DNA of 64,000 nucleotides from contig DASVOS010000009.1 in assembly GCA_036383255.1 (NCBI GenBank), positions 148,110-212,109 of the forward strand, read 5' to 3'. Position 1 is the first letter of the stretch; each line of letters starts with the position of its first letter. This stretch comes from Gammaproteobacteria bacterium (lineage in GTDB: Bacteria > Pseudomonadota > Gammaproteobacteria > Natronospirales > REEB76). This document shows, piece by piece, positions 4,654-61,881 of the stretch. Made by a program: the position numbers and the translations under genes. The notes under the pieces are model-generated. The model saw only the letters and a list, made by a program, of their open reading frames with translations, had not been told where the DNA came from and ran no database searches.

Positions 4654-4720
4654 GCGGATGATTATACGTGCGGACCGCGGGACCGCCGATTGGACCGGAC
4701 GGTGCGTTATGACAGGCGTG

Positions 4721-28849: not shown

Positions 28850-28865
28850 TGGGGTATTTACCTAA
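28850..28865 (+). promoter_or_regulatory. Box-1-like element TGGGGTATTTACCTAA overlapping a TAATAT -10-like hexamer
   Basis: 11/16 identity to the 16-mers at 29989 and 34361; TAATAT at 28863-28868. Confidence 0.25.
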
Positions 28866-28874
28866 TATAAAAAA

Positions 28875-29046
28875 AGTCGCCCCCGGTCCAGACTTTGCCT
28901 CGGGTCGTGCACCCCTCACGATCCAAACGGCTGATGTTCCCCGTCGGCCGCACAAGCCGGGATGCAACGTCACGGCTCGCAATTCGGGTGGTCCTCCCTA
29001 CCGCCCGCGTTGACTGAAGCGCCTCGAAAGAGGCGCTTCTTTTTGG
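28875..29046 (+). ncRNA. Candidate ~170-nt small RNA or terminator-controlled leader upstream of the OmpR-type regulator
   Basis: Divergent intergenic region; -10-like TAATAT at 28863-28868; strong plus-strand intrinsic terminator at 29016-29046; no convincing CDS between them. Confidence 0.35.
29016..29046 (+). terminator. Intrinsic terminator
   Basis: GAAGCGCCTC-GAAA-GAGGCGCTTC followed by TTTTTGG; no T-run on the opposite strand, so plus-oriented. Confidence 0.75.
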
Positions 29047-29150
29047 TGGGGACAATACCCGGATTCAGGTCGTTTCCCGCCGGTATTCAGGGGATCACCC
29101 GCTTCCCTGCAACGGCAGGGCTCAACTATTCTCGACCCTGGACGCCATGG

Positions 29151-29954
29151 ATGGTGTCCGCCTTCCAGGATGTCCAGCCTGACCCAGGCGGACCCGGAAA
29201 AAAGAAAGTGGACCTGCGCATCTCATCGACTCCGACGCGAGCCCCGTTCAAGGCCCTCATCGCCACCGATGATGCAGCCCTCACCACGGTCGAGCACTCC
29301 GCCCTCAAGCAGTTGCATTTCGACGCCGTCACCGTGCATGACGACGGCGAGATGCTGCACAGCATCCACGCCGAGCGCCCCGACCTCGTGATCCTGGACG
29401 CGGACCTGCCCGCAGGCGGAGGCCTGGAGGCCTGCCGCCGCCTAAGGGAGGATCCCAGCACCGCCTCCATCCCCATCATCATGGTGACCGGCGAGGACGA
29501 CAGCTCCGAGAGGATCGAGGCGCTGGAGACCGGCGCCGACGACTGCGTGACCAAGCCCCTGCAGGTGGACATGCTGGTGGCCCACATCAAGGCATTGGCG
29601 CGGCGCGCACTGCAGGCGGTGACCCCCGGCCACCGGTTGCGGGCCGGCCCCATCGACATGGACCTGGACCGCTGGACGGTGCAGGTCTCCGGTGCGCCCA
29701 TCGAGCTCACCAAGAAGGAATTCCGGCTGCTGCAGGTGCTCCTGGAGGCCAAGGGGCGGGCCCTGACCCGTGACTTCCTGCTGCAGGAGGCCTGGTCCCA
29801 CGGCACCATCCACGGCCTCGACACCCGCACCGTGGACGTGCATATCGGCCGCCTGCGACGCAAGCTTGGCAAAGCCGGCCACTACATCATCACCGTGCGC
29901 AACGTCGGCTTCCGCTTCGACATCCTTCCGGAGTGGTTCACCACCCGCTCCTGA
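29151..29954 (+). CDS. OmpR/PhoB-family response regulator (orphan)
   Basis: Receiver (DLVILDADLP acceptor Asp, VTKP Lys) plus winged helix (LTKKEFRLLQVLL, RTVDVHIGRLRRKL); ATG 29151 or GTG 29208; the track start at 28962 would place the terminator hairpin inside the CDS. Confidence 0.85.
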   Translation: MVSAFQDVQPDPGGPGKKKVDLRISSTPTRAPFKALIATDDAALTTVEHSALKQLHFDAVTVHDDGEMLHSIHAERPDLVILDADLPAGGGLEACRRLREDPSTASIPIIMVTGEDDSSERIEALETGADDCVTKPLQVDMLVAHIKALARRALQAVTPGHRLRAGPIDMDLDRWTVQVSGAPIELTKKEFRLLQVLLEAKGRALTRDFLLQEAWSHGTIHGLDTRTVDVHIGRLRRKLGKAGHYIITVRNVGFRFDILPEWFTTRS

Positions 29955-29988: not shown

Positions 29989-30004
29989 TAGGGTGATTAC
30001 CCTA
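29989..30004 (+). promoter_or_regulatory. Box 1: TAGGGTGATTACCCTA (imperfect palindrome) upstream of rsbR-like operon
   Basis: Near-identical 16-mer at 34361-34376 (TAAGGTGATTACCCCT); contains NarL-heptamer-like TACCCTA. Confidence 0.35.
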
Positions 30005-30383: not shown

Positions 30384-31295
30384 ATGACTGATAAAGGCAA
30401 GAGCCGCGACCGGAGCCTGCAGACGGACCCTGGCGCCGGCGGCGACGAATCCCACGCCGAAGTACTGCGAGAGCTGGTGGCGCATCTGCGCCAGAACCGC
30501 ACCCAGCTGCGCGAGGTATGGGCTAGCCGCATCATGAGCGCCCGCTTCCTCACCGCCATGACCAATGAGGAAATCATGGCGGAGGCGAGCTCGGTGTACG
30601 ACAACTACCTGGGCGCCCTGGAGACCGGCTCGATCGAGGCCCTCGAAGCCTACGCCCGCGACCTGTCGGAACGAATCATCCCTCGAGGCGTGGAGACGCA
30701 CGAAGTGGTGGGTATCGTGCTCCTGCTGCGCGACGTGCTGGCCCGCTCCCTCTTCTCCAAATACGGCCAGAACCAGCAGCTGTTGACACGGGTGCTGGAC
30801 GCCTACGAGCCTGCGGCGAACCGCATCGCCACCACGGTGGCGGTGGGCTTCGTGCAGGAGCGCGAGCGCATCATCCGCCAGCAACAGGAAGCCATCCGTG
30901 AGCTGTCCACCCCCGTGCTGGCGGTGCGTGAACGGCTGCTGATTCTCCCCATCATCGGCATCCTCGACCCGCAACGCGCCCGCCAGCTGACGGAACAGCT
31001 GCTGCGCGGCATCCGCGTGAACCGCGCACGAGTGGTCGTGATGGACCTGACCGGTGTGCCGGCGGTGGACGCCGCGGTGGCAAACCACCTGGTGCAGACC
31101 GTGGAAGCGGCCCGACTGGTCGGCGCCGATGTGATCGTCACCGGCCTCGCGCCGGAACTGGCCCAGACGCTGGTCACCATCGGCGTGGACCTCGGCAAGA
31201 TGGCCACGGTGGGCGACCTGCAGGGCGGCATCGAAGAGGCCGAGAAGCTGCTGGGCTACAAGGTGGTGCCGATCCTCGACAAGAGCCCGGAATAA
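30384..31295 (+). CDS. rsbR: RsbR-like stressosome sensor (N-terminal helical sensor domain + C-terminal STAS)
   Basis: GAGGAG RBS 6 nt upstream; STPVLAVRERLLILPIIGILDPQRARQLTEQLL and VVMDLTGVPAVD...GLAPELAQTLVTIGV match the RsbR STAS pattern. Confidence 0.85.
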   Translation: MTDKGKSRDRSLQTDPGAGGDESHAEVLRELVAHLRQNRTQLREVWASRIMSARFLTAMTNEEIMAEASSVYDNYLGALETGSIEALEAYARDLSERIIPRGVETHEVVGIVLLLRDVLARSLFSKYGQNQQLLTRVLDAYEPAANRIATTVAVGFVQERERIIRQQQEAIRELSTPVLAVRERLLILPIIGILDPQRARQLTEQLLRGIRVNRARVVVMDLTGVPAVDAAVANHLVQTVEAARLVGADVIVTGLAPELAQTLVTIGVDLGKMATVGDLQGGIEEAEKLLGYKVVPILDKSPE

Positions 31296-31307
31296 GGACA
31301 CGCCCAA

Positions 31308-31697
31308 GTGGAAGTCCCTATCCTAAAACAGCGCAATTACCTGATTGCGTCAGTGCAAGCGGTGCTGACCGACCAGGACCTGGTCAACCTGCGCGACCGC
31401 CTGGTGGCACAGGTGGGCCGTTACCGCTCCGTCGGCGTGATCCTCGACGTGACTGGACTCGACGTGATGGACTCGTTCTCCGTGCGCACGCTGCGGGACA
31501 TGGCCCACATGATCCGCCTGCGCGGCGCCGACACGGTCATCGTCGGCATCCAGCCGGAAGTCGCCTTCTCGATGGTGCAGTTGGGACTCAGCCTGGAAGG
31601 CGTGCCCACTGCGCTCGACCTCGAAGAAGGCCTCGCCTATCTGGACGCGCGGCCCAAGCGCACCAGCGTGGGCAGCACCCCGCCCGGACCTAGATGA
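31308..31697 (+). CDS. rsbS: RsbS-like single-STAS stressosome scaffold
   Basis: GTG start; close to my recollection of B. subtilis RsbS (PILKQRNYLIASVQ, LDVTGLDVMDSFSVRTL with conserved Ser, GIQPEVAFSMVQLGL, TALDLEEGL). Confidence 0.9.
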   Translation: MEVPILKQRNYLIASVQAVLTDQDLVNLRDRLVAQVGRYRSVGVILDVTGLDVMDSFSVRTLRDMAHMIRLRGADTVIVGIQPEVAFSMVQLGLSLEGVPTALDLEEGLAYLDARPKRTSVGSTPPGPR

Positions 31698-32152
31698 ATA
31701 AGGTCGGGCCTTCTCCTCAGAACGGAAGCAGCGAGGCGACAGGGTCTTTGGAAGACAGGGTAGTCATTCCCATCAGGACGGTGATGGATATCGTCACCGC
31801 CCGCCAGCATGGGCGCGAACTCGCGTTGCAATCCGGCTTCTCGGAGACGGAGTCGACGCTGATCGCGACCATCATCTCCGAGCTCGCGCGCAACATCGTG
31901 CTGTACGCGCAGACCGGCGAGATCGTGCTGCAGAAGAGCGGCGGCACCGACAAGCCGCGCGGCGTGGTGATCGTCAGCCGCGACAACGGACCGGGCATCC
32001 CCGACGTGCAGCGCGCCCTCGTAGGCGGCTACTCCACCTCCGGCGGCCTCGGCATGGGCCTCTCCGGCGTGCGCCGCATGGTGGACGAGTTCTACATAGA
32101 CACCGGCGTCGGCAAGGGCACCACCGTCACCGCCAAGAAATGGCTCCAATGA
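31694..32152 (+). CDS. rsbT: RsbT-like serine kinase (GHKL ATPase, anti-sigma regulatory factor family)
   Basis: ATGA overlap with rsbS; ISELARNIVLYA, DNGPGIPD, GYSTSGGLGMGLSGVRRMVDEF motifs. Confidence 0.9.
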   Translation: MNKVGPSPQNGSSEATGSLEDRVVIPIRTVMDIVTARQHGRELALQSGFSETESTLIATIISELARNIVLYAQTGEIVLQKSGGTDKPRGVVIVSRDNGPGIPDVQRALVGGYSTSGGLGMGLSGVRRMVDEFYIDTGVGKGTTVTAKKWLQ

Positions 32153-32751
32153 ACCGGAGCATCATAGAGTCGGGCGCAGCCTCCTTCACCCTGCCCGGGC
32201 AGGCGGAATCGGGCGACCGCCACGCGGTGGTCGAGGTCAAGAGCGGCGCGGTCGCGACGGTGGTTGACGGTCTGGGCCACGGCAGCGAAGCCGCGGCGGC
32301 CGCCGAGCTCGCCATCGAGAGCGTGCAGCGGCACGCCGACGGCGAGCCGCTCACCGCCCTGCTCAAGCACTGCCACACCGCGCTCAAGGGCAGCCGCGGC
32401 GCGGTCATGAACGTGGCGGCCTTCGATGCACGCGAAGGCACGCTCACCTGGCTCGGCATCGGCAACGTGGAGGGCCGGCTCCTGCTCAAGAGCGCACACA
32501 ACGGCTACGTGCGCCAGAACCTCCTGCTGCGCCCGGGCGTGGTCGGGCAACGCCTGCCCTCGCTGCAGGCCGCAGTCACGAGGGTGCAGCCGGGTGACAT
32601 GGTGATCTTCGCCACCGACGGCATCGCTCCTGACTTCGCAGAGCAGGTGCGATTGGATGCGCCGGTGGACGAGATCGCCGAGCGCATCATCACCCGCTAT
32701 TGCAAGAAGACCGATGACGCCCTGGTACTGGTCGTCCGGTACCTGGGCTGA
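32140..32751 (+). CDS. rsbX: RsbX-like PP2C/SpoIIE-family phosphatase
   Basis: ESGDRHAVV, VVDGLGHG, VMIFATDGI, DDALVLVVRY PP2C metal-binding motifs; ATG 32149 (ATGA overlap with rsbT stop) is an alternative start. Confidence 0.8.
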   Translation: MAPMNRSIIESGAASFTLPGQAESGDRHAVVEVKSGAVATVVDGLGHGSEAAAAAELAIESVQRHADGEPLTALLKHCHTALKGSRGAVMNVAAFDAREGTLTWLGIGNVEGRLLLKSAHNGYVRQNLLLRPGVVGQRLPSLQAAVTRVQPGDMVIFATDGIAPDFAEQVRLDAPVDEIAERIITRYCKKTDDALVLVVRYLG

Positions 32752-32757
32752 CGCGCG

Positions 32758-33693
32758 ATGCGCGCCTTCTCACCGGACCTGCATGAGATGTACCGCAAAG
32801 CCCTAGACCGATATCTGACCCAAGGCGGCGAAGCCCCGCTGCTGGAGGCCTACGAACTCGGCCGCCAGGCACTGGGCTCGGGGGTCGGCGTGCTCGGCCT
32901 CATCAACATCCACCATTCCGCACTCGCCGCGCTGCTGGACCACCCCGGCGGCGACGTGCGCCAGAAGCTCGATGACTCGCACCGCTTCCTGATGGAGAGC
33001 ATGTCGCCCTTCGAGATGATGCAGATCGGCAACCAGGAATCCAACGCCGCGCTGCGCCGGCTCAACGGCATCCTCGAGGAGGAAGCCAAGCGCATCGCCC
33101 ATACCCTGCACGACGAGGCGGCTCAGATGCTCGCCTCGGCTTACCTCGAATTGGCGGAGATCGAACGCCTGGCGCCGCCGCAGGCCGTGCGCGAGCACGT
33201 GGAGCACATCTCCGCCCATCTCGATGAGGTCTCGGACCAGCTCCGGCGCCTGTCGCATGAGCTTCGGCCGCCCATCCTCGACCAGCTCGGCCTGATGCCG
33301 GCGCTGACATTCCTCAGTGACGGCTTCCGCAAGCGCGCAGGCCTGGAGATAGACATCGAAAACGAGATCGCTGAACACGGCCGCCTGCCGCAACCGGTGG
33401 AGACCGCGCTGTACCGCACGGTACAGGAGGCGCTCAACAACGTGGTCAAGCACGCCCAAGCCCGCCGTGTCGGGATCCGGGTATGGATCGCGGATCATCT
33501 CGTCTATTGCAGCATCAAGGATGACGGCAAGGGCTTCGCGGCTCCCGCCAGCAGTGAGACCGGTTCGCACGGCCTCGGTCTGCTGGGGATCCGCGAGCGC
33601 ATCAGTAGCCTGCACGGGGCCTTCGAAGTCGAGTCGAAGCCCGGCGCCGGCACGGAGCTAAGGATAGGCATACCACTAGGAAGCAACCTATGA
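32758..33693 (+). CDS. Soluble histidine kinase: RsbU N-terminal-like domain + HisKA_3 + HATPase_c
   Basis: No TM segments; N-terminal ~100 aa (YRKALDRYLTQGGEAPLLEAYELGRQAL...INIHHSAL...FLMESMSPFEMM) resembles the RsbT-binding RsbU_N domain; H-box RIAHTLHDEAAQ; N/G boxes LNNVVKHA, DDGKGF, GLGLLGIRER. Confidence 0.85.
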   Translation: MRAFSPDLHEMYRKALDRYLTQGGEAPLLEAYELGRQALGSGVGVLGLINIHHSALAALLDHPGGDVRQKLDDSHRFLMESMSPFEMMQIGNQESNAALRRLNGILEEEAKRIAHTLHDEAAQMLASAYLELAEIERLAPPQAVREHVEHISAHLDEVSDQLRRLSHELRPPILDQLGLMPALTFLSDGFRKRAGLEIDIENEIAEHGRLPQPVETALYRTVQEALNNVVKHAQARRVGIRVWIADHLVYCSIKDDGKGFAAPASSETGSHGLGLLGIRERISSLHGAFEVESKPGAGTELRIGIPLGSNL

Positions 33694-34322
33694 TGTCGAA
33701 CATCGTATTGGCAGACGATCACCCCATGTTCCGGCAGGGCCTCAAGGCGCTGCTCGAACGGGAAGGCTACGACGTGGTGGCGGAGGCAGCCAACGGCCAT
33801 GAGGCAGTGCGGCATGCACGGCAGCTGAATCCGCGCCTCGCGGTGCTGGACCTCGGCATGCCGCTGCTGAACGGCATCGATGCCGCCCGTGAGATCCACA
33901 AGCAGGCGCCCAAAACGGAAGTGGTGCTGCTCACCATGTACGAGGAGGATGCCTACGTGCTGGAAGCGCTGCGCGCCGGCATCCGCGGCTACGTGCTGAA
34001 GGCGCAGGCCGCCTCGGACCTGCTGAGCGCCATCAAGGAGGTGTTGCGCGGCGCGGTATACCTCTCCCCCGGCATCTCCAAGGCGGTCGTGGACGCCTAC
34101 GTCGGCAAGTCAGAGCTGCCGGCTGACCCGCTCACAGACCGCGAACGGCAGGTGCTGCAGCTCGTGGCCGAAGGCAAGACCACCAAGCAGGTAGCGGAAG
34201 TGCTCGGCCTCAGCGTGAAGACCGCCGACTCGCACCGTACCCGCATCATGCAGAAGCTCGAGATCCACGAGACCGCGAGCCTGGTGCGTTACGCGATCCG
34301 CCGCGGCTTCATCAAGGCATGA
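33690..34322 (+). CDS. NarL/FixJ-family response regulator (REC + GerE HTH), copy 1
   Basis: ATGA overlap with kinase stop; ADDHPMF, VLDLGMP acceptor Asp, LLTMY, YVLK; C-terminal LTDRERQVLQLVAEGKTTKQVAEVLGLSVKTADSHRTRIMQKL. Confidence 0.9.
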   Translation: MMSNIVLADDHPMFRQGLKALLEREGYDVVAEAANGHEAVRHARQLNPRLAVLDLGMPLLNGIDAAREIHKQAPKTEVVLLTMYEEDAYVLEALRAGIRGYVLKAQAASDLLSAIKEVLRGAVYLSPGISKAVVDAYVGKSELPADPLTDRERQVLQLVAEGKTTKQVAEVLGLSVKTADSHRTRIMQKLEIHETASLVRYAIRRGFIKA

Positions 34323-34360
34323 GGGCGGCGCCGGCGTGTAGTCGCCGGCCTACGCGGGAT

Positions 34361-34389
34361 TAAGGTGATTACCCCTCGAATTGGGGGTA
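34361..34389 (+). promoter_or_regulatory. Box 1 copy TAAGGTGATTACCCCT overlapping inverted repeat TACCCC-N8-GGGGTA
   Basis: TACCCCT (34370-34376) fits the NarL heptamer TACYYMT; inverted partner GGGGTA at 34384-34389; lies 110-140 nt upstream of regulator copy 2. Confidence 0.35.
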
Positions 34390-34500
34390 CTTACTTGATT
34401 TCGCCCTTAGAGGTTTCACTGCATAGTCTGCGCATCGTGGTTTTTGTAGGTCCTGCGCGGTGCGCAGCGGCCGAGAACCACAACGACCTAGAGAGCAGCC

Positions 34501-35130
34501 ATGCAGCGGATATTGCTGGCAGATGACCATCCCATGTTCCGGCAGGGCCTCAAGGCGCTGCTGGAGCGTGAAGGCTTCGATGTGGTGGGCGAAGCGGCCG
34601 ACGGCCATGAGGCGGTGCGCCTGGCGCGCCAGCTCGGCCCCTCCATCGCGGTGCTCGACCTCGGCATGCCGCTCCTCAACGGCATCGATGCCGCCCGCCA
34701 GATCCTCAAGCAGACCGCGGGCATCCAGGTGATCGTGCTAACCATGTACGAGGAAGAAGCGTACGTGCTGGAGGCGTTGCGCGCCGGCATCCGCGGCTAC
34801 GTGCTCAAGGGCCAAGCGGCCGCCGACCTGGTGGGCGCCATCAAGGAAGTGCTGCGCGGCTCGGTCTACCTCTCCCCGGGCATCTCCAAGACCGTGGTGG
34901 ATGCCTACGTCGGCAAATCCGAGCTGCCGGCCGATCCGCTCACGGACCGTGAGCGCCAAGTACTGCAGCTCGTGGCCGAGGGCAAGACCACCAAGGAAGT
35001 GGCGCAAGTCCTCGGCCTCAGCGTCAAGACCGCCGACTCGCACCGTACCCGCATCATGCAGAAGCTCGACATCCACGACACCGCGAGCCTGGTGCGTTAC
35101 GCCGTGCGGCGGGGGTTCATCAAGGCCTGA
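34501..35130 (+). CDS. NarL/FixJ-family response regulator, copy 2
   Basis: Same motifs as copy 1; own upstream 178-nt intergenic region. Confidence 0.9.
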   Translation: MQRILLADDHPMFRQGLKALLEREGFDVVGEAADGHEAVRLARQLGPSIAVLDLGMPLLNGIDAARQILKQTAGIQVIVLTMYEEEAYVLEALRAGIRGYVLKGQAAADLVGAIKEVLRGSVYLSPGISKTVVDAYVGKSELPADPLTDRERQVLQLVAEGKTTKEVAQVLGLSVKTADSHRTRIMQKLDIHDTASLVRYAVRRGFIKA

Positions 35131-35138
35131 CGACCGCC

Positions 35139-35828
35139 GTGCACCCCCTGACTGGACCCGCACATACCCCCTTCCCCGCCTCCCGCCCCGAGGGCACCCC
35201 GGTGCGCGTGCTCCTGGCGGACGACCACAAGATCTTCCGGCAGAGCCTCAGCATGCTGCTGCAGCAGGAGGGCTTCGAGGTGGCGGGCGAGGCAGCGGAT
35301 GGCCCCGAGGCCCTGGACCTCGCCGAGACGCGCCATCCGGACGTCGCGATCCTCGACTATGACATGCCCGCCATGGATGGCATCAGCGTGGCGCGCGAAC
35401 TGCAGCGCGCGACCCCCGGCATCCAGACCGTGCTGCTCACCACCGACGAGGACAACGCCAGCGCCGTGGAGGCGCTGCGCGCCGGCATGCACGGCTATGT
35501 GTACAAGTCACAGACCGCGGCGGAGCTCATCAGCACCATCCGCGAGGTGGCGCGCGGCGCCATCCACTTCAATACCCGGCTCACTCCTGGCGCCCTGTCC
35601 TCGCTGGTCTCGCATGCCGAGACCCCGCCGGAACCGCTCACGGAGCGCGAGCGCGAAGTCCTGCTCCTGATCGCGCGTGGCAACACCACGCGCATGATCG
35701 CCAAGGAGCTGGGCTTGAGCGTGAAGACCGTGGAGTCCCACCGCAGCCGCATCATGCACAAGCTTCACGTGCACCGGGCGGCGGAACTCATCCGCTACGC
35801 CATCCGCCGGCAGCTCATTCCGCCCTGA
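35139..35828 (+). CDS. NarL/FixJ-family response regulator, third and more divergent
   Basis: REC (ADDHKIF, ILDYDMP, LLTTD, YVYK) + GerE HTH (LTEREREVLLLIARGNTTRMIAKELGLSVKTVESHRSRIMHKL); GTG 35139 or GTG 35202 start. Confidence 0.85.
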   Translation: MHPLTGPAHTPFPASRPEGTPVRVLLADDHKIFRQSLSMLLQQEGFEVAGEAADGPEALDLAETRHPDVAILDYDMPAMDGISVARELQRATPGIQTVLLTTDEDNASAVEALRAGMHGYVYKSQTAAELISTIREVARGAIHFNTRLTPGALSSLVSHAETPPEPLTEREREVLLLIARGNTTRMIAKELGLSVKTVESHRSRIMHKLHVHRAAELIRYAIRRQLIPP

Positions 35829-35969: not shown

Positions 35970-36015
35970 GGTATATATCCCATACCGGTAAGGTAGGGAC
36001 CTTAAGGGTTTAACC
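35970..36015 (+). promoter_or_regulatory. Cluster of GGTA/TACC half-sites plus Box 2 upstream of the giant secreted protein gene
   Basis: GGTAT-N7-ATACC, palindrome TACCGGTA, GGTAAGGTAGGG, then TTAAGGGTTTAACC (36002-36015); 58-103 nt upstream of ATG 36073. Confidence 0.3.
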
Positions 36016-36072: not shown

Positions 36073-39000
36073 ATGTCCTGTCGCCGCTTACTGGCCTTCC
36101 TGTTCTTCTGTCTCATCTCCCGCCTTGCCTTCGCCGCCACAGCTCCCGGCGGCTTCCTGGAGAACGACGAGACCGCCACCCCCCGCGCCCTCATGACCCA
36201 GGCCCAGGCCAGCGCGATCCTGCCTGAGCGAGGCGCCTTCGATTTCCCGGCCCCCTACGGCACCCGTGGCGTGCGGGTGACCAATGCCTCCGACTGCGGC
36301 GGCCAGGACTGCGTGGACATGATCTATTCCTACTGGCGCAACATGAGCAACAGCGCCGGCAGCAACACTCTCTATGTATTCATCGGTCTGGACCGCAACC
36401 GCGGTGGTCAGGGTCCGACCCTGTTCAGCTACGACAAGACCAGCGAGGCGCTCACCCAGGTGGGCCCGTTGTTCCCCGCCTCCAGCCCCTACAGCTGGAA
36501 CAGCGCCGAGGGCTGGTACTTCAGCTACGGCATGGCCACCAAGATTTACCTGCCGAGCGGCTCGAAGCTGCTGCGGTACGACGTGCTGAGCCACGCCATG
36601 GAGACGGTGTTCGACTCCACCACCCAGTATCCAAACACCGTCATCCGCCAGGCCAACTCCAGCAACGACGACGACGTCCACTCCGCCACCCTGCAGGATG
36701 CCTCCAGCCGCCAGACCTTGGGTTGCATCGCATACAAGTCCAGCACCCGCCAGTTCTTCTATTACCCGGCCCAGGGCAAGTTCGACGAGTGCCAGATCGA
36801 CAAGAGTGGCCGCTACCTGCTGATCAAGGAGAAGCTGCCTACCGATACCTGCACGAGCTGCGATGAGGACAACGTGTTCGTGGACCTGCAGACCGGCGTG
36901 CAGCAGGTGCTGATGGACCAAAGCGGCGCCGGCGGCCACTCCGACATGGGTTACGGCACCTACCTCGCGGTGGACAACTGGAACAACTACGCCAACGCAT
37001 GGCGGACCTGGAACCTGGGCCAGACCACCCTCGCGGGCGGCCTCACCTACCACGACAACGACTGGAGCGCATTCTCCCCGTCCCACGTGAGCTTCGAGAA
37101 CGCAAGCCCGGATCTGCCCATCGCACAGCAATATGCCTGCGGCAGCGGTGCCAGCCGTTCCACGGCGTTGCGGGCCAACGAGGTGATCTGCTTCATGCTG
37201 GACAGCTCGGTACCCCATGCCTCCGCCCAGGTGTTGGTGGTGGCACCGGTGATGACGAGCCTGGACGCGACCGGCGGCAATGCCACCTGCCCGAGCTGCA
37301 CCGACTATGGCAAGGACCCGAAGGGGAACATCGACCCCACGGGACAGTATTTCTTCTGGGTCAGCAACATGGGCGGCAGCCGCATGGATGCCTTCATGGT
37401 ACGCATCCCATCCCAGCTCCTGACCGGTACGGGCAGCAGCGGCGACAGCACCGCTCCTAGCATCGGCCTCACCGCGCCCTACGCCGGCGCCGCCCTCTCC
37501 GGCAGCGTGAACGTATCCGCCAACGCGTCCGACAATGTCGCCGTGGCCGGCGTGCAGTTCAAGCTGGATGGCGCGAACCTGGGCGCAGAACTGACCCAGA
37601 CCCCCTATACCCTGACCTGGGATACCACCAAGGTCGCTGCGGGCACCCATACCTTGAGCGCCGTGGCGCGGGATGCGGCTGGCAACGTCTCCACCGCCGG
37701 CAACGTGACCGTGACTACCTTCATCTACGTTCCGCCGCCGGTCATCTCCTCCGTGAGCGCCAGCGTCACCGGCAGCAGTTCCGTCACCCTGAGCTGGAGC
37801 ACCGACCAGCCGGCGAACTCCCAGGTGGCCTACGGCACCACGACCGCCTACGGCAGCACGTCGGTCCTCGATACCGCTCTCGCCACCGCCCATGCCTTGG
37901 TCCTGACGGGCCTTGTCCCGGGCACGCTCTACCACTACCAGGTGATCTCGCGGGACTCCACCGGCCAGGCCAGCGTCTCCGCAGACCAGGTGTTCACTAC
38001 CCAGGCGGGCGCGACGGTGACGCTGCCGGCCGTGCTCGCTGATTGGCGGCTGGACGCGGGCAACGGCTTGCAGGCCGTTGACAGCTCCGGCCACGGCTAC
38101 AGCGCCACGCTCCACAACCAGCCCTCGTGGGGGCTCGGCGTGGCCGGCGACGGCCTGAGCTTCGACGGCATCGACCAGTACGCGAGCGTGACCAGTAGCA
38201 GCGCACTCAACGCCTACCCTCTGACCGTGTCCGCCTGGTTCAAGGCCGGCAGCGACACGGGCCAGCACGGCATCGTCAGCAAGTACGCCTATGGCTCCAT
38301 GCGGGGCTACCAAGTGCTCATGAGCGGCGGCAAACTCTGCGCCTGGTATTACCGGGATAGCGCTGACCATGTCGGCAACACGGCCTGCAGCCTAAGGGCA
38401 GCGGGCTATGCCGATGGGACTTGGCATATGGTCACCTTCACGGTAAACGTCTACGGTGGCAAGCTCTACGTGGACGGCGCCCTGAAATCGAAGCTCGGCT
38501 GGACCGGACGGCCTGGTGCCGCCTCCACCAGCCAGGCCCTGAACTTCGCCCGCTACCCGGGCGCGAGCCGGCCCTATCTCGCCGCCACCCTGGATGAGGT
38601 GCGGCTCTATGCCAAGGCCCTGAGCGCCGCCCAGGTGGCTGCCCTCTACGCCTCGTTCCCGCGCGAGCAGCCCACCGCGTGGACAGATCTGCGCAACGTC
38701 ACCACCGATGGCGGCTCGCTGCAGAAGACCGCGGGCTGCGACGGCTGCGAAGACGCCAGCGCCGCCTCGCAGCAGCAGCTCGCCCAGGGCAGCGATGGCC
38801 ACCTGCAGTTCACGGTGGCCGAGACGAATACCCTTCGCAGCGTGGGCCTGGCAGCGGTAGGCTCTGGCCCGGGCGTGGCGAACATGGACTACGCGCTGCG
38901 CCTGCAGAACGGCATCGCGGAGGTACGCGAGAAGGGCCTATACCGCAAGGATGTGACCTTCGCTTCCGGCGACGTGTTCCGCCTGGAACTGCGCGCTGGA

Positions 39001-39132
39001 AGTGTGGATTACTACAAGAACGGCATCTTGTTCTACACGAGCACGGTCGCCGCCAGCCAGCCGCTGCAGGCGGCGGCCTCGGTGAACACCCTGGGGGGTA
39101 CCATAAGCGACGCGCTGATCCAGGGCCAGTGA
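36073..39132 (+). CDS. Large secreted multidomain protein (N-terminal beta-propeller-like region, Ig-like, Fn3-like, LamG/concanavalin-like, C-terminal beta-sandwich-like domain)
   Basis: ATG 36073 gives signal peptide MSCRRLLAFLFFCLISRLAFA; Ig-like segment approx 37450-37720 (NVSANASDNVAVAGVQFKLDG...HTLSAVARDAAGN); Fn3-like approx 37740-38010 (VTLSWSTDQPANSQVAYG...YHYQVISRD); LamG approx 38020-38660 (LDEVRLYAKALSAAQV). Confidence 0.85.
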   Translation: MSCRRLLAFLFFCLISRLAFAATAPGGFLENDETATPRALMTQAQASAILPERGAFDFPAPYGTRGVRVTNASDCGGQDCVDMIYSYWRNMSNSAGSNTLYVFIGLDRNRGGQGPTLFSYDKTSEALTQVGPLFPASSPYSWNSAEGWYFSYGMATKIYLPSGSKLLRYDVLSHAMETVFDSTTQYPNTVIRQANSSNDDDVHSATLQDASSRQTLGCIAYKSSTRQFFYYPAQGKFDECQIDKSGRYLLIKEKLPTDTCTSCDEDNVFVDLQTGVQQVLMDQSGAGGHSDMGYGTYLAVDNWNNYANAWRTWNLGQTTLAGGLTYHDNDWSAFSPSHVSFENASPDLPIAQQYACGSGASRSTALRANEVICFMLDSSVPHASAQVLVVAPVMTSLDATGGNATCPSCTDYGKDPKGNIDPTGQYFFWVSNMGGSRMDAFMVRIPSQLLTGTGSSGDSTAPSIGLTAPYAGAALSGSVNVSANASDNVAVAGVQFKLDGANLGAELTQTPYTLTWDTTKVAAGTHTLSAVARDAAGNVSTAGNVTVTTFIYVPPPVISSVSASVTGSSSVTLSWSTDQPANSQVAYGTTTAYGSTSVLDTALATAHALVLTGLVPGTLYHYQVISRDSTGQASVSADQVFTTQAGATVTLPAVLADWRLDAGNGLQAVDSSGHGYSATLHNQPSWGLGVAGDGLSFDGIDQYASVTSSSALNAYPLTVSAWFKAGSDTGQHGIVSKYAYGSMRGYQVLMSGGKLCAWYYRDSADHVGNTACSLRAAGYADGTWHMVTFTVNVYGGKLYVDGALKSKLGWTGRPGAASTSQALNFARYPGASRPYLAATLDEVRLYAKALSAAQVAALYASFPREQPTAWTDLRNVTTDGGSLQKTAGCDGCEDASAASQQQLAQGSDGHLQFTVAETNTLRSVGLAAVGSGPGVANMDYALRLQNGIAEVREKGLYRKDVTFASGDVFRLELRAGSVDYYKNGILFYTSTVAASQPLQAAASVNTLGGTISDALIQGQ

Positions 39133-42602: not shown

Positions 42603-43763
42603 TCAACCGGCAGTGCGTTCCCAAGTCACCTGCTGGCGGCCGTTGAGCAGGTGGACCAGCGCCATCACCGTGGCCCAGTTGAGCAGGCAGAAGGCGTAAG
42701 GGACGTTGAGGAAGAAAGGTTTACGGGCGGCGTGCCGCGTGAGGTAGCCGAGCAGCGCGGCGGCATAGAACAGCACCTGGGCCACGAAGAGGCCGCGGTA
42801 GGCCACCTGGTCCTGGGCCAGCAGCAGGTTCGCGCCGAAGGCCAGCGCGAGCCACAGGGGGCTCAGCAGCCGGCACAGCTTGTGGGACACGGTCTGCCAC
42901 CACAGCCGGTTCTGGAACGGATTCAACAGCCAGGGCCTGAGGAAGAACAGCTGGAAGTTACCGGCGATGGTCCGCAGCTTGCGGGTGAACTCATGGCGCG
43001 CATCCGGCGCCACCCAGTCGTAAGCCCGGGCGCGCGGCTCGAACAGCACCCGGTAGCCCTGCCGCGCCACCTGCATGGGTATCAGCACATCGTCCAGGAT
43101 CAGGGCCTCGGGGATGGGTCGGAACAGCTCGCGGCGCAGCGCGTAGATGGCACCGGTGGCGCCCACGGTGGAGTCCACCCGGCTCTCGTAGAGGCGCATG
43201 AACTTCTCATAGCGCCAGTAGAAATCCACGCCTTTGCCCACCTCGGAGCGCCCTGCACGGCCGTCCAGGAGCACCAGTTCACCGCTCACGGCTCCCACTT
43301 TCGGGTCCACGAAGCGGGCGGCGAGCGCCCTGAGCGCACCGGTCTCGAAGCGCTGGCGGGCGTCCGCCAGCACCACGATCTCGCCCGTGGCCATGGGCAC
43401 CACGTCGTTCAGCACCGCGCTCTTGCCGCGCCGCTGCCGGAACTCGACCACGCGCACCTGCTCCGATGCATAGACGCGGGCCCGTTCCACGGTGCTGTCG
43501 GTGGAGCCGTCGGAGGCCACGATCACCTCTACCCGGTCCCAGGGATAATCCAGGTCGAGGAAGTTCTCGAGCCGCTGGCGGATGCGGCGCGCCTCGTTGT
43601 ACGCCACCACCACCAGGGTGATGCGCGGCTGCAGCCAGCCCTCCGCCGGGATACGGCGCGGCAGTGCCGCCAGCAGGCGGATGAGCAGCGGATAGCCCAG
43701 ATACGTGTAGAGCAGCAGGGCCACGGACGCCCAGAACCACAGGGAGAGGTACGCCATGTCCAT
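42603..43763 (-). CDS. Membrane-embedded glycosyltransferase family 2 (synthase-like)
   Basis: N-terminal TM, GT-A core ([21 protein letters not shown]), C-terminal TM helices. Confidence 0.85.
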
Positions 43764-45523
43764 CAGTGCCCCTGGGCCGCCACGCAGGATGGGACCGAAT
43801 CCCCGAGATGGGGGTCGTAGGCATCGAGGGAGGCGCAGAGCTGATCCACGTCCACTCCGATGTCGCCGCCGTCATCGGCTCCGGCCTTGTATGCGCTGCC
43901 GGGCGCCAGGCGGTAGTCCCGCGCGCCCATGCGTGCGAAGCCGACGCCCCCCAGGTCCTTGGGGAAAAAGTTGCCGGACGGGTACTGCTGCGGGGCGGCG
44001 CCCACGATCACGTTGCGGCGCAGCTTGGCGCCCGGGAAGTAGGCCGAGATGGTGGACACACCGACACCCTTGTTGGTGCCGATGATGCCGTAGCGGTTAT
44101 GGGGCGCGATGTTGTCCGTATAGCTGAAACCGGAGACGGCGCGGCCGTCGCTGAACACGATGGTGCCGGTCTGCAGCGAGGTGTTGTGGCTGAAAGCTAC
44201 GTCGCGGCTGCCATCGCCCATCATGAGCAGCACGCCGGGGCCCCAAGGTCCGCCTACGTCCTCGAACAGGTTGTTGGAGACCTGGATGCGCTGGGTCTGG
44301 CGGCTCGGATGGTTATTGTCGTAGCCCAGGATGTTGATGCCGTTGGCCACGTGGCGCACCACGTTGTCCTTGAAGGTCACGTCCTGCACCACCGACCAGG
44401 GGGCGCTGCCGTCCTGGTCGCGCACCGTGAACAGGATGGAGAATCCGTCCTGGGACTGGGCCCAGTTGTATTCGAGCAGGTTGCCTTCCACCAGCACCCG
44501 CTGGGCATTCTTGAGCTCGAAGATGTTCTTCACGCTCCAGGGGGTGCCCTGGTAGGCGGGATCGTCCTTCTTCCAGGCCAATGGCTTGGAGAAGTGGTTG
44601 CCGCGCACCTCGATGTCCGAGGGCACCAGGTTCGGGATGGTGGGGTCGGTGCCGCCGAACAGCACGTTCTCGCCGGCGGCCTCCAGGTAGTCATCCACGA
44701 TCATGAACGGCCCGGTACCGTTCCAGGCCGAGAGCGCCTGGCTGTCCTCTCCTACCTGCTTGAAGTCGGAGAGATAGGAGTCGATGACCGCCACGTAGCG
44801 GCCGTTCATGGCCACGCCACGGCGTGCGCCCACCTGCGGGTCGCCGTGCAGGTAGCAGCGGTCTACGATGATGTGATGCGCCAAGGTCTCGATGGACTTG
44901 TCGCCGTTGCCGATCACGAAGAGGTTCGCCAGGAAGGCGGCCTTGGGCGCGGCAGGCGCGCCACCGCCCAGGCTGAAGCCATGCAGCCAGCTCAGCGCCT
45001 TGCTGACGCTGGCGGGGCCGGGCCTGAGCTCCAGTCCGATGAGCCGGTAGTGATGCGCGCCTTGGGCGGTGCGCAGCACCGGCCCGCTGCTGGCCTCCAG
45101 CTTGGGCATGAGAGCGGCATCGTCCGGAGACACGCGCACGCCAGGCGCGAGGCGGCCGTCCGCCACCGCGCTCGATTCCACGACGATCCAGCCGGCGGTG
45201 TCGGCGGGCTTGAGCGGCAACGTGAAGCTGCCACTGAAGACCGCGCCGGCCTCCAGCACCACGGTGTCACCCGGCTGGGCCTTGTCCAGCGCTGCCTGCA
45301 GGTCGCCACCGGCTTTCACGTCGATGCGCTTGCCGGTGGGGCGCACATAGCGCGCGTCCACGTAGCCCTGCGGGAGCTCGGGGGTCTGGCGTCCAGCCGG
45401 CTGCGGCGGGGCGGCGGCGACCGCCGCCTCGCTGTGGCAGCCCGGGACGATCAGGAGTGGGCCGGCGACCCCTGAGGCGAGTAGGCCGGCGTATAGGAAC
45501 CTGACGATGAAGGTTGTTTGCAT
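43763..45523 (-). CDS. Right-handed parallel beta-helix lipoprotein (polysaccharide lyase/epimerase/hydrolase-like)
   Basis: Start MQTTFIVRF (45521-45523) with AAGGTGG RBS; lipobox-like LIVPGC; repetitive beta-helix pattern (NHF, VEGN, FKDNVV, VSNNLF, FSHNT, YTDN). Confidence 0.7.
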   Translation of the reverse strand: MQTTFIVRFLYAGLLASGVAGPLLIVPGCHSEAAVAAAPPQPAGRQTPELPQGYVDARYVRPTGKRIDVKAGGDLQAALDKAQPGDTVVLEAGAVFSGSFTLPLKPADTAGWIVVESSAVADGRLAPGVRVSPDDAALMPKLEASSGPVLRTAQGAHHYRLIGLELRPGPASVSKALSWLHGFSLGGGAPAAPKAAFLANLFVIGNGDKSIETLAHHIIVDRCYLHGDPQVGARRGVAMNGRYVAVIDSYLSDFKQVGEDSQALSAWNGTGPFMIVDDYLEAAGENVLFGGTDPTIPNLVPSDIEVRGNHFSKPLAWKKDDPAYQGTPWSVKNIFELKNAQRVLVEGNLLEYNWAQSQDGFSILFTVRDQDGSAPWSVVQDVTFKDNVVRHVANGINILGYDNNHPSRQTQRIQVSNNLFEDVGGPWGPGVLLMMGDGSRDVAFSHNTSLQTGTIVFSDGRAVSGFSYTDNIAPHNRYGIIGTNKGVGVSTISAYFPGAKLRRNVIVGAAPQQYPSGNFFPKDLGGVGFARMGARDYRLAPGSAYKAGADDGGDIGVDVDQLCASLDAYDPHLGDSVPSCVAAQGH

Positions 45524-46827
45524 GGCTCTTCCACCTTTGTCTGGACACGGGACACACGCGCGATGCCGCGCGTGAGGTCTATGACGGGCAGTTCCGGCGC
45601 GGCGGCCAGCACCTGGCTGGTCTCTTCGCCGGCATTGCCCACCACCAGCAGTTCGGCGTGGTTGAGGAGATCGGCAGCCTCGGTGCACATGAGCGAGGAG
45701 ATATGCGGTATCTCCTCCTCGATGTAGCGCCGGTTGGCGCCGGTGAGACGCGCCACCGCGACGTTGTGGTCGAGGATCCGCACCTCTAGGCCCTTGCCGA
45801 TGAGGTTCTCGACCAGCGTCACCATCGGGCTCTCGCGCAGGTCATCGGTGCCGGGCTTGAAGGACAGGCCGAGTACGCCGATACGGCGCTTGTGGGTGGC
45901 CAGTACCGTGTCCACGGCTCGGCGGATCTGCGCGCCGTTGGACTCGAGGATGCGGCTGATCAGCGGCAGCTCCACGTCGGCGCTGCGGGCCGCATAGGTC
46001 AGGGCACGGATGTCCTTGGGCAGGCAGGAACCGCCGAAGGCGAAACCGGGTTTGAGGTAAGCCTCTGAGACGTTGAGCTTGCGGTCCATGCGGAAGATGC
46101 GCATGACTTCCTGCGGTTCCACGCCGAAGGCCTCGCAAGCGTCGCCCACTTCATTCGCGAAGCACACCTTCAAGGCGTGGAAGGTGTTGGCGGTGTACTT
46201 GATCATCTCGGCGGTGCGGATGCTGGTGCTGACGAACGGCGCATCCACGTTTGCGTAGAGTTCGCGCACCTTGGCCGCGGTGGCTTCGTCCTGGCAACCC
46301 ACCAGGGTGAACGGCGGCTGCAGGAAGTCCTGCAGCGCGCTGCCCTCGCGGATGAACTCCGGGTTCACCGCCACGCTCAGGAAGGAACGGTCACGGCGCT
46401 GGATGCCGGCGCGGATGGCGGGGAACACCACTTCCTCCACCGTACCCGGCAGCACGGTGCTGCGCACCACCACCGTGAACGGTTTCTCCCGATGGTGGAG
46501 CTCTCGGCCGATCTCTGAGCTGAGTTGGCGCAGGATGTCCACGTTGAGCTGGCCGTTGGCGTAGCCCGGCGTGCCGACGCAGATGAGCGCCATGTCCGAG
46601 TTGGCGATGCCCTCGGCCGCCGAGGTGGTGGCACGCAGGCGCCCATTCGCCACCGTGAAGGCCAGCAGGGCCTCCAGGCCGGGCTCCACGATGGGCGAGA
46701 GGCCGCCGTTGACCATCGCCACCTTCTCTGGATTGACGTCCACGCCGATGACCTGGTGGCCTGCCTCCGCGAAGCGTGCGGCGCTCACGCAGCCCACGTA
46801 ACCCAGTCCGAATATGCTGATACGCAT
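45451..46827 (-). CDS. Nucleotide-sugar 6-dehydrogenase, AlgD (GDP-mannose dehydrogenase)-like
   Basis: MRISIFGLGYVGCV...VIGVDVNPEKV...SPIVEPGLEALL, GFAFGGSCLPKD, closely resembling P. aeruginosa AlgD as recalled; 3-prime end overlaps the next gene by 73 nt. Confidence 0.9.
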   Translation of the reverse strand: MRISIFGLGYVGCVSAARFAEAGHQVIGVDVNPEKVAMVNGGLSPIVEPGLEALLAFTVANGRLRATTSAAEGIANSDMALICVGTPGYANGQLNVDILRQLSSEIGRELHHREKPFTVVVRSTVLPGTVEEVVFPAIRAGIQRRDRSFLSVAVNPEFIREGSALQDFLQPPFTLVGCQDEATAAKVRELYANVDAPFVSTSIRTAEMIKYTANTFHALKVCFANEVGDACEAFGVEPQEVMRIFRMDRKLNVSEAYLKPGFAFGGSCLPKDIRALTYAARSADVELPLISRILESNGAQIRRAVDTVLATHKRRIGVLGLSFKPGTDDLRESPMVTLVENLIGKGLEVRILDHNVAVARLTGANRRYIEEEIPHISSLMCTEAADLLNHAELLVVGNAGEETSQVLAAAPELPVIDLTRGIARVSRVQTKVEEPCKQPSSSGSYTPAYSPQGSPAHS

Positions 46828-60676: not shown

Positions 60677-61881
60677 GCCTTGACCTCCTGCAGTGGCATC
60701 GGGCCGCGCCGCACCAGGCGCTTCAGGTTCTGCTTGAGATTCAGGGCACGGCGACACAGCGTGCCACGCACGCTCGGTGGGAAGCAGTGGACACGCACCA
60801 GGTCCCGACTGCTGCGGGTCCAAAGCGCCTTATAACTCTCGACGCCGTGCAGCATGTCGAATTCGGCCACGCCCTCGGCGATGGCCTCCTGTACGACCAA
60901 TGCGAGGGTCGATAGTCCGACGCTGTGGTCGTTGTAGGCAGGGTCGTAGCCGGCCTGGTAGTAATAGAAGGCATCGCCGTAACGGAACGAATAGGTGGAG
61001 GCCACTGCCGTGCCGTCCAGCCGCAGCACGTACAGCCGCAGCCAGCCCCGTTCCAGCGCCAGGCGGCTGAACTCGCGGTGGAAGGAAAGCACCGCGGGAC
61101 CGGTGAGAGCCGTGGAACGCTCGTCCCCCGACCAGCGCAACCGATGCAGTCCGAAGAACGTCTCGATGTCGTCCTGGCGCTCCGTCTCGGTGGCGCTGCG
61201 CCGGAACTCGACCGTGCGGAAATCCTCCGCCAGGAGCTTGAGTCTCCGGCGCACGTTACGCCGGTGCGCGCCGCTCACCCCCGCCATGTAGGACTGCCAG
61301 CTTTGGCCGGCGAGCGGAATATAGGGGCAGTTGTCGGTGATCTTCTGCTCCGCCTGCCACCCGGCTTGTCCGAGCAATGAGACCAGGGTGGCGATGCGGC
61401 GCGAAGCCGGCTTGACGCGGGACAACTCGATCACGAGTCCCCGTTCCTGCAGGTAATCCGCCAGGGCCTGCAGCACGCCCTGCTCCTCATGCGGCTGCAC
61501 GATGATATCTAGGTAGTCCGAGCCAACGTCCCCGCCGCCCATGAACTCCAGGGTCCGGAACGGCAGCAGCCGCTGCAGCTGCGGCGGCCTGAGCGCCAGC
61601 GGCGCTATGGCGAGCAGCTGGTCGCCGCGGCGCACCACCAGAAGGTGCAGGCGCCGGCCGGCCGAGAGGTGCTTCCACCAGGTGGCAAGCCATTCCCAGG
61701 TGAGGAACAGGCAGTCCGCCCCGCTATTGCGGAGCAGCGTGTCCCATTCGAAGCGCAGCAGTCCCAGCATGTCCGCGTCCTCCACGCGCTCCACCTTGAG
61801 CGCGGGTCGCTCGCCGTGGGCGTTGAGCTTGACGCGCGGCACAGTGCGGGTGATGGTCTGGGGGTAGGCTGTGTCTTCCAT
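60673..61881 (-). CDS. CelD/BcsL-like GNAT acyltransferase (Acetyltransf_6, FemAB-related fold)
   Basis: FEWDTLLRNSGADCLFLTWEWLATWWKHL...RLHLLVVRRGDQLLAIAPL and C-terminal FDMLHGVESYK pattern. Confidence 0.75.
   Translation of the reverse strand: MEDTAYPQTITRTVPRVKLNAHGERPALKVERVEDADMLGLLRFEWDTLLRNSGADCLFLTWEWLATWWKHLSAGRRLHLLVVRRGDQLLAIAPLALRPPQLQRLLPFRTLEFMGGGDVGSDYLDIIVQPHEEQGVLQALADYLQERGLVIELSRVKPASRRIATLVSLLGQAGWQAEQKITDNCPYIPLAGQSWQSYMAGVSGAHRRNVRRRLKLLAEDFRTVEFRRSATETERQDDIETFFGLHRLRWSGDERSTALTGPAVLSFHREFSRLALERGWLRLYVLRLDGTAVASTYSFRYGDAFYYYQAGYDPAYNDHSVGLSTLALVVQEAIAEGVAEFDMLHGVESYKALWTRSSRDLVRVHCFPPSVRGTLCRRALNLKQNLKRLVRRGPMPLQEVKA

Follow-up and report, generated by a model that had tools for sequence, protein, structure and literature searches.

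A stressosome-type sensing module with a predicted histidine kinase and NarL-type regulator output in a gammaproteobacterial genome

Genes of the locus

The stretch of DNA analysed here, referred to as the window, comprises 64,000 nt of contig DASVOS010000009.1 (positions 148,110-212,109, forward strand; assembly GCA_036383255.1, Natronospirales REEB76), and contains at 30384-35828 a run of eight plus-strand open reading frames (ORFs) that appear to join a stressosome module to a two-component system. An earlier note on this DNA had reported these ORFs together with three ATGA start/stop overlaps, and both are present, the overlaps lying at 31694-31697, 32149-32152 and 33690-33693; the rsbR and rsbS genes are separated by 12 nt, rsbX and the kinase gene by 6 nt, and the genes of the first two response regulators (RR1 and RR2) by 178 bp that are non-coding. 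The note had assigned the first four proteins to the RsbR, RsbS, RsbT and RsbX families, and the profile hidden Markov model placement that it proposed as a check succeeded. We consider it probable that these four proteins make up a stressosome-type sensor that feeds a His-Asp phosphorelay, where the Bacillus system has the sigma-B partner switch.

The RsbR-like co-antagonist (30384-31295, +) has a helical N-terminal domain of the RsbRD_N, non-haem-globin-like type, a linker helix and a C-terminal STAS domain. The STAS domain is matched in Pfam with E 2.4e-13 and RsbRD_N weakly (20.8 bits, below the cut-off of 24.3); phmmer aligns residues 34-295 with Listeria RsbR (E 5.6e-34), which is also the top Foldseek match (7b0u, E 6.6e-12) of an AlphaFold2 (AF2) model with a mean predicted local distance difference test score (pLDDT) of 73. 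In this model the fold of the N-domain resembles that of the AfGcHK globin sensor (TM ~0.7), and the STAS core compares with solved stressosomes at Foldseek TM values of 0.83-0.93. No protoglobin family was matched in RsbR by Pfam, the match being RsbRD_N; His106 is variable (H/V/F/Y), the sole invariant histidine is His34 in the first helix, and haem binding was judged unlikely because the helices expected to hold a proximal histidine contain none that is conserved. Across the related loci described below (numbered L001 onwards), RsbR is the most conserved protein, with a median of 79% of residues identical to those in the window; the corresponding medians are 72% (RsbS), 56% (RsbT), 47% (kinase) and 46% (RsbX). 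The conservation of RsbR across phyla includes long invariant stretches of the sensor domain, and may point to a universal ligand or partner.

The RsbS-like protein (31308-31697, +) is a single-STAS antagonist (STAS 3.1e-12) that matches Bacillus subtilis RsbS (6jhk) with E 2.8e-23, its predicted phospho-serine Ser56 (in LDVMDSF) aligning with Ser59; this MDSF serine, described as conserved in the earlier note, is present in 45 of 45 related loci. The RsbT-like GHKL serine kinase and switch protein (31694-32152, +; HATPase_c 1.1e-12, HATPase_c_2 5.4e-9) is 46% identical over its full length to B. subtilis RsbT (E 2e-41) as against 24% (E 8e-4) to RsbW, a comparison weakened by the use of reference sequences entered by hand; a sequence search of the PDB gave no RsbT structure, only SpoIIAB being matched. 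The RsbX-like protein (32149-32751, +; SpoIIE/PP2C 1.6e-10) is a single-domain PP2C feedback phosphatase; among solved structures it comes closest to MtX of Moorella (3zt9, 6.6e-18) and to RsbX of B. subtilis (3w40, 1.3e-9). No further STAS, RsbT or PP2C paralogues, paralogues of RsbR included, were found in the window. Two related loci carry an extra small STAS ORF, 34-46% identical to RsbS, between their first and second NarL genes (L003:11756-12088 and L083:11764-12171), where the window has just the 178-bp gap.

The fifth gene (32758-33693, +) encodes a soluble histidine kinase. It had been described as a HisKA_3 kinase, and the HisKA_3 (4.3e-11) and HATPase_c (8.9e-15) domains are indeed matched, but an N-terminal RsbU_N domain had been overlooked (PF08673, residues 11-87; 8.2e-12, 45.6 bits against a cut-off of 25.5); a conserved helical linker joins it to the HisKA_3 domain, which bears the predicted phospho-His118. 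A profile of 13 kinase homologues matches the N-domain of B. subtilis RsbU (2j70/1w53) over residues 7-95 with E 2e-5 to 6e-5. His118, Asp119, Glu120, Asn228 and the DxGxG and GLG motifs (N, G1 and G2 boxes) are invariant in these 13 homologues, and linker residues 88-110, between RsbU_N and the H-box, are nearly invariant in the family. NCBIfam names (MctS/MctR, UhpB and others) scored far below their cut-offs and were not used.

Three NarL/GerE regulators complete the run and, as had been claimed, each matches the Response_reg and GerE families of Pfam over their full length. The nearest solved relatives of RR1 (33690-34322, +; Response_reg 9.5e-29, GerE 2.8e-19) are VraR, DesR, NarL and DevR, and its Asp54 aligns with the phospho-aspartate of VraR; its gene shares the third ATGA overlap with the kinase gene. 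RR2 (34501-35130, +) is a paralogue of RR1 with 85% amino-acid and 83% DNA identity. The longest ORF of RR3 begins at 35139, but GTG 35202 is the more likely start, giving a gene at 35202-35828 (+) whose product is ~49% identical to RR1 and RR2; orthologues of RR3 are found in L003 (71%) and L084.

The RsbU_N kinase and its association with RsbT

Because RsbU_N is the module on which RsbT docks in Bacillus RsbU, its presence on the kinase provides a candidate physical link between sensor and kinase. Binding of RsbT to the N-domain of RsbU orders or rigidifies a coiled-coil linker and activates RsbU (PMC12143880), and in Moorella a GGDEF cyclase is under the control of this type of N-domain (PMC12143880; Quin 2012 as cited there). 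Histidine kinases with RsbU_N are known to occur in stressosome operons, and one from a gammaproteobacterial metagenome-assembled genome (MAG) has been modelled with AF2 (Baral 2025, PMC12143880); modules of rsbR, rsbS, rsbT and rsbX (RSTX) followed by HisKA/REC proteins, some with RsbU_N, have been listed (Heinz 2022, PMC9237108), and a proposal dating from 2005, cited in PMC9237108, already gave RsbRST modules alternative outputs. Experimental work on a stressosome with HisKA_3/NarL output was not found in full-text literature searches. A tie between the present kinase and MBI3545564.1, the protein of the Baral 2025 model, was sought through members of the 90% clusters and could not be confirmed.

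Residues at the presumed interface are partly retained. RsbU Glu24, which contacts RsbT (PMC12143880), aligns with the invariant Glu25 of the kinase, and RsbU Ile74 corresponds to Met79; on the other side the equivalents of RsbT Arg19 and Arg23 are retained as Arg37 and Arg41, and Asn24 is replaced by Glu42, in an alignment to the hand-entered sequence of B. subtilis RsbT.

Homologues of the kinase are numerous, with more than 2600 at E<=1e-10 among 8000 scored candidates, nearly all having the same four Pfam domains, and the cassette is present in thousands of metagenomic sequences across phyla; the closest named homologues are gammaproteobacterial MAGs. The RsbU_N and linker region alone gives 1283 representative clusters, and all ten that were sampled are histidine kinases, of several classes, suggesting that wiring from RsbT to a kinase is a broad theme. 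In the 80 best species-level loci we located the counterparts of the window proteins. With a single exception the loci belong to MAGs, and they span at least six phyla, with members from Acidobacteriota, Nitrospirota, Binatia, Methylomirabilota, Verrucomicrobiota and Gammaproteobacteria.

Among the 49 loci that have an RsbU_N kinase and enough upstream DNA, the neighbourhood survey called for by the earlier note shows R-S-T-X directly upstream of the kinase in 44, with the order R-S-T-X-kinase-regulator, RsbT only in three, and RsbT with RsbX in two; RsbT is thus present in 49 of 49. The picture differs for the 15 loci whose kinases have no RsbU_N match, 11 of which lack all of R, S, T and X and only two of which have RsbT. 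This conserved gene order, together with the ATGA overlap, upholds the proposal that the module is genetically coupled to the kinase and regulators as its output. A further indication that does not depend on gene order comes from an Acidobacteriota MAG, in which an RsbR-type sensor domain and linker helix are fused to a HisKA_3 kinase (L055:3334-4473, +), followed by a NarL regulator at 4437-5069; the fusion has no STAS domain, RsbS, RsbT or RsbU_N, and as a Rosetta-stone protein ties sensor to output. A similar fusion may be present in L061.

Several variants of the cassette were seen. In a Pseudohongiella-like genome (L009:9356-12186), and also in L012 and L019, the cassette is reduced to an RsbT-like protein, an RsbU_N kinase and a pair of NarL regulators, and RsbR, RsbS and RsbX were not found nearby; a close relative of RsbR occurs elsewhere in Pseudohongiellaceae (P0144). 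In six loci of Methylomirabilota/Rokubacteria type (L054, L057, L058, L059, L063 and L064) ~350 nt are inserted into the kinase gene between the RsbU_N and HisKA_3 regions; they probably encode an additional PAS or GAF domain of the kind found in more distant RsbU_N kinases. L003 (JBLNDO010000023.1) is labelled Bacillota, a bin label that looks wrong, since the locus shares synteny with the window at 66-94% protein identity and the other close relatives are all Gammaproteobacteria. The 80 best loci include one from a cultured organism, Litorivivens lipolytica, which was set aside as a poor model: it has an RsbT-like gene, but the N-terminus of its kinase is not recognisably RsbU_N.

A conserved palindrome and its candidate targets

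The predicted operator is a 16-bp palindrome of two-fold symmetry, TNRGGT-N4-ACCYNA (no strand is assigned to its sites). A search of three intergenic regions for inverted repeats with arms of at least 12 nt returned none, arms of that length being required, and the shorter palindromes came to light on visual inspection and in pattern searches. In the window, TAGGGTGATTACCCTA lies at 29989-30004, 380-395 bp upstream of rsbR, with TCGGGTATTTACCCGA at the homologous position of L003; an operator-like TAAGGTGATTACCCCT lies at 34361-34376, 125-140 bp upstream of RR2; and TAAGGTAGGGACCTTA, followed by AGGGTTTAACCCC, lies at 35989-36004, 69-84 bp upstream of the likely ATG of a secreted-protein gene, in a block that is conserved in L003. 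A fourth, operator-like site, TGGGGTATTTACCTAA at 28850-28865, matches the pattern exactly and occupies the divergent intergenic region between a heptosyltransferase gene and an OmpR-type regulator gene. All four matches (<=1 mismatch) are intergenic at this locus, and in comparison with L003 the operator blocks have been kept while the flanking intergenic DNA has diverged. Second-regulator genes elsewhere have a site upstream in L003 and weaker, two-mismatch matches in L008 and L017.

Independent evidence for the palindrome comes from a comparison across loci, for which 450 bp upstream of rsbR (or rsbT) was taken from each of 53 loci, 23.7 kb in total. There are 38 exact sites in this DNA, distributed over 33 of the 53 loci, as against 10 in 932 kb elsewhere, and dinucleotide shuffles give an expectation of 0.055. 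In the window the stricter pattern TARGGT-N4-ACCYTA has 5 matches in 64 kb where 1.34 are expected, a count reached by none of 100 shuffles; a variant with a 3-nt spacer was unconvincing, with 7 matches where 2.8 are expected and 2 of 100 shuffles doing as well. No DNA-binding protein other than the NarL regulator is shared by all the cassettes, and a two-fold site suits a GerE-type dimer, from which we infer that the cassette's NarL-type regulator binds the palindrome and autoregulates the operon. The palindrome resembles the GGG/CCC-type half-sites of NreC and DevR, a resemblance to be taken only as a lead. A scan for sigma-70 promoters gave nothing useful.

The secreted-protein gene (36073-39132, +) is a likely member of the regulon, to judge from its operator site and its neighbourhood in other genomes. 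Its product had been called giant, but the ORF is 1034 aa long, or ~1019 aa from the likely ATG at 36073; it has a signal peptide, a predicted beta-propeller, and Big_7, FN3-like and LamG domains (Pfam). The N-domain (440 aa, window 36073-37467) belongs to no Pfam family and has 1446 homologues; its AF2 model (pLDDT 86.5, predicted TM-score 0.86) is a beta-propeller whose top Foldseek matches are the PL22 oligogalacturonate lyases 3pe7 and 3c5m (E ~1e-12, compared with ~1e-8 for other propellers), and a PL22-lyase-like fold is predicted. Propeller homologues lie downstream of the cassette in L003, L083 and L084, with operator sites upstream of the homologue in L003 and L083. The propeller gene is divergent from the cassette, sharing an operator-bearing promoter region, in L004, L009, L019, L020, L060 and L070, an arrangement that includes minimal cassettes of the L009 type; it is also divergent in L012, without an exact operator match, and in L026, where no site was found. 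Tandem propeller paralogues occur in L084 (three) and L019 (two).

Beyond the secreted-protein gene lies a polysaccharide biosynthesis cluster (39207-64000, to beyond 63908; -). The earlier note had described an operon of more than 25 kb; the cluster is present, and it extends over at least 24.8 kb in the window, on the opposite strand and converging on the locus. It encodes an epimerase, a ManC-like protein, GlmS, a GT2 glycosyltransferase, UDP-glucose dehydrogenase, deacetylases and GT1 glycosyltransferases, and further two Asn-synthase-type amidotransferases, a heparinase II/III protein, a sulfotransferase, GNATs and an adenylating enzyme. Homologues of the GT2, epimerase and UDP-glucose dehydrogenase genes adjoin the cassette in eight other loci (L003, L009, L012, L019, L026, L070, L083 and L084), and this synteny, like that of the propeller gene, reaches into distant lineages. 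Two ORFs of the cluster, at 43763-45688 (-, 641 aa) and 59174-60823 (-, 549 aa), have no Pfam or NCBIfam match; L083 encodes a 611-aa protein without Pfam match in the same position as the former, between the GT2 and UDP-glucose dehydrogenase genes.

On the other side of the cassette, an OmpR/PhoB-type response regulator is encoded at 29151-29954 (+; 267 aa from 29151, the longest ORF beginning at 28962; Response_reg 1.4e-22, Trans_reg_C 2.1e-23), and the gene call on the identical contig L001 likewise gives 267 aa. It is a fourth regulator just upstream of the cassette, and the only adjoining kinase gene is that of the RsbU_N kinase; a homologue adjoins the cassette in L003, L005, L007, L009, L012, L019, L083 and L084. 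A strong terminator-like hairpin at 29016-29049 (+), with a 10-bp stem containing 7 GC pairs and followed by TTTTT, follows the operator-like site at 28850 and precedes the likely start of this regulator. No plus-strand gene lies upstream of the hairpin, which might act as an attenuator or terminate a small transcript. Scans of the whole window with Rfam and for tRNAs gave no matches, so the long 5' regions are not accounted for by a known riboswitch or leader RNA family. The remaining flank (1-28784) is of housekeeping character, with genes for aconitase, ABC and MacB-type exporters, cytochrome bd oxidase, an Rrf2-regulated suf Fe-S operon, a pyrophosphatase and the heptosyltransferase, and no signalling partner for the locus was found in it.

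A proposed signalling route, its alternatives and known systems

A signalling route can be proposed in which each step is drawn from homology, domain content, gene coupling or comparative genomics. By homology to known stressosomes, RsbR and RsbS would form a scaffold that holds RsbT; on receipt of a signal RsbT would phosphorylate Ser56 of RsbS and be released, and RsbX would strip the phosphate from RsbS and reset the system. The domain content of the kinase and published work on RsbU and MtG suggest that free RsbT would then dock on the dimeric RsbU_N domain and helical linker of the kinase, shifting its balance between autokinase and phosphatase activities, with activation assumed by analogy. 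From His118 the phosphate would, given the gene coupling, pass to RR1; RR2 is a very probable further recipient and RR3 a possible one. A dimer of the phosphorylated regulator would bind the TNRGGT-N4-ACCYNA palindrome, autoregulating the operon and controlling the RR2-RR3 unit, the OmpR-type regulator gene and the secreted propeller protein, which would be linked to a uronic-acid-type polysaccharide locus. Since both canonical threonines of RsbR are missing, the RsbR-phosphorylation layer known from Bacillus is probably absent here, and signalling would proceed through phosphorylated RsbS alone.

A number of observations weigh against this proposal. The AF2 model of RsbR is of moderate confidence (pLDDT 73). 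Pro196 and Ala230 of RsbR align with the B. subtilis phospho-threonines Thr171 and Thr205, and as signalling in Bacillus requires phosphorylation of Thr171 the complex may behave differently here. Of the residues by which RsbU contacts RsbT, Tyr28 is replaced by Leu29 in the kinase and Ile78 by Ser83. The loose palindrome occurs 4 times in the window where 2.99 matches are expected, which is not above chance, and the operator owes its significance to where the sites lie and to the comparison across loci. The window part of the polysaccharide operon yielded no operator site, so that matrix remodelling, raised by the earlier note as stress-gated matrix production, is supported for the propeller gene by its operator site and synteny and for the operon only by synteny. 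A sigma-B-type cascade could lie outside the 64-kb window, and no binding, phosphotransfer or DNA-binding experiments on this subfamily were found in the literature.

The most serious alternative concerns the number of outputs. Only RR1 might be a substrate of the kinase, with RR2 and RR3 acting as phosphate sinks, as competitors for the operator or as partners of another kinase, so that there would be one output with modulators. RR2 and RR3 stand behind the 178-bp gap with an operator site of their own, the recognition helix of RR3 differs from that of its more distant paralogues RR1 and RR2 (~49% identity), and among 40 loci a single NarL regulator follows the kinase in 27, two in 11 and three in one. 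Helix alpha-1 and the recognition helix are nonetheless identical in RR1 and RR2, which argues that these two share a kinase and a DNA site, and the three-regulator arrangement recurs beyond the window, although only in the closest relatives, L003 and L084. We regard a single-substrate output as possible and rather doubtful.

A second alternative is that there is no large icosahedral stressosome of ~1.5-1.8 MDa, and that RsbR/RsbS dimers and RsbT make up a small partner-switching set in which the signal is passed unlike in Bacillus. The replacement of both threonines speaks for this, and is general in the family: among 46 loci the first position is Pro in 40 and Ser in six, and the second is Ala in 20, Ser in 16 and Val in 10 (Ala or Val in 30 of 46). 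Vibrio RsbR, by comparison, retains Ser199 and Thr233 at these positions. However, the STAS domains of RsbR and RsbS closely match solved stressosome proteins (E 5.6e-34 for RsbR, 2.8e-23 for RsbS, with the TM values of 0.83-0.93 noted above), the serine of RsbS is invariant, RsbX has been kept, and the RsbR linker residues Ser175 and Thr176 are invariant and could be alternative phosphorylation sites. A small set in place of the large complex seems unlikely.

Still less probable is that the main output is a sigma-B-like cascade elsewhere in the genome, with the kinase and regulators serving only feedback or autoregulation. The inspection covered 64 kb of the genome, and the best-supported operator sites are the autoregulatory ones. 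Against this, no gene for a sigma factor, an RsbV-like or RsbW-like protein or an RsbU-type phosphatase was found among the window proteins, in agreement with the earlier note; the only RsbU_N domain of the window is on the kinase, and the cassette is self-contained and is conserved in 44 of 49 loci across phyla. The idea that RsbT phosphorylates the kinase, or that the two modules are mere neighbours with no action of one on the other, draws on the Vibrio D1 kinase, which has no RsbU_N and for which transient phosphorylation was proposed and no stable interaction found, and is very improbable given the RsbU_N domain, its strict co-occurrence with RsbT, the gene overlaps and the L055 fusion of the same sensor domain to the same type of kinase.

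The phosphorelay output thus remains the reading that we prefer. A wider reading, that this is a phylum-spanning system of bacteria from soil, sediment and water, most of them uncultured, in which RsbR acts via phosphorylated RsbS only, RsbT switches the kinase directly, and a NarL-type regulator acting at the conserved operator autoregulates the system and controls secreted PL22-like lyases of a new family and a uronic-acid exopolysaccharide locus, with regulator paralogues diversifying the output, is offered tentatively as possible rather than probable. Beyond the sigma-B paradigm, to our knowledge, only the Vibrio and Moorella stressosomes have been studied. The family is abundant in MAGs of Acidobacteriota, Nitrospirota, Methylomirabilota, Binatia and Gammaproteobacteria, and may be a common means of coupling stress sensing to matrix remodelling in environmental bacteria. 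The predicted wiring is testable through the conserved operator and likely target gene, and because the route from sensor to DNA is compact, with soluble components, a defined docking domain and few regulators, both reconstitution of the RsbT-to-kinase step in vitro and motif-based prediction of the regulon in many genomes would be within reach.

The module shares with the Bacillus/Listeria stressosome an RsbR with helical sensor and STAS domains, an RsbS with its serine, RsbT, RsbX, and RsbU_N on the predicted target of RsbT. It differs in that the effector behind RsbU_N is a HisKA_3 kinase and not a PP2C phosphatase, that the window contains no RsbV, RsbW or sigma factor and no RsbR paralogues, that rsbX directly follows rsbT, and that RsbR lacks both threonine phosphosites. 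The MtR-MtS-MtT-MtX module of Moorella thermoacetica with MtG (RsbU_N-GAF-GGDEF), as far as it is described in the sources cited above, has the same RSTX order and likewise places RsbU_N on an effector that is not a phosphatase, but its output is c-di-GMP synthesis and not the phosphotransfer to DNA-binding regulators predicted here. In Vibrio vulnificus and V. brasiliensis, as here, a Gram-negative RSTX module is followed by two-component genes with no sigma factor; Vibrio also has the D1/D2 two-component and c-di-GMP proteins downstream, its RsbR is a haem-binding globin-coupled O2 sensor whereas the present one is of the RsbRD_N type without a conserved proximal histidine, and its D1 kinase has no RsbU_N, in contrast to the RsbU_N kinase and NarL-type output of this locus. 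The kinase core and regulators are themselves typical members of the group that includes DesK-DesR, VraS-VraR/LiaS-LiaR, NreB-NreC and DevS-DevR, but they would take their input from a partner protein that docks on RsbU_N, where other HisKA_3/NarL systems have a membrane, PAS or GAF sensor.

The closest parallels are the 'NreB-like' RsbU_N kinase MBI3545564.1 (PMC12143880) and the RsbU_N proteins of PMC9237108, for which the same predicted architecture and the same linker-ordering mechanism have been proposed. The earlier note had therefore overstated the novelty of the locus: RSTX modules with two-component outputs were described in 2005, and RsbU_N kinases beside stressosome genes were noted in 2022 and modelled in 2025, so that its novelty is moderate. 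The basic architecture is not new, and the locus is a member of a kind already predicted. The two published accounts consist of a passing bioinformatic mention and a model, with no operator, targets, subfamily survey, multiple regulators or RsbR phosphosites; what is new here is the family survey, the conserved operator, the candidate target gene, the missing RsbR phosphosites and the RsbU_N link for this locus.

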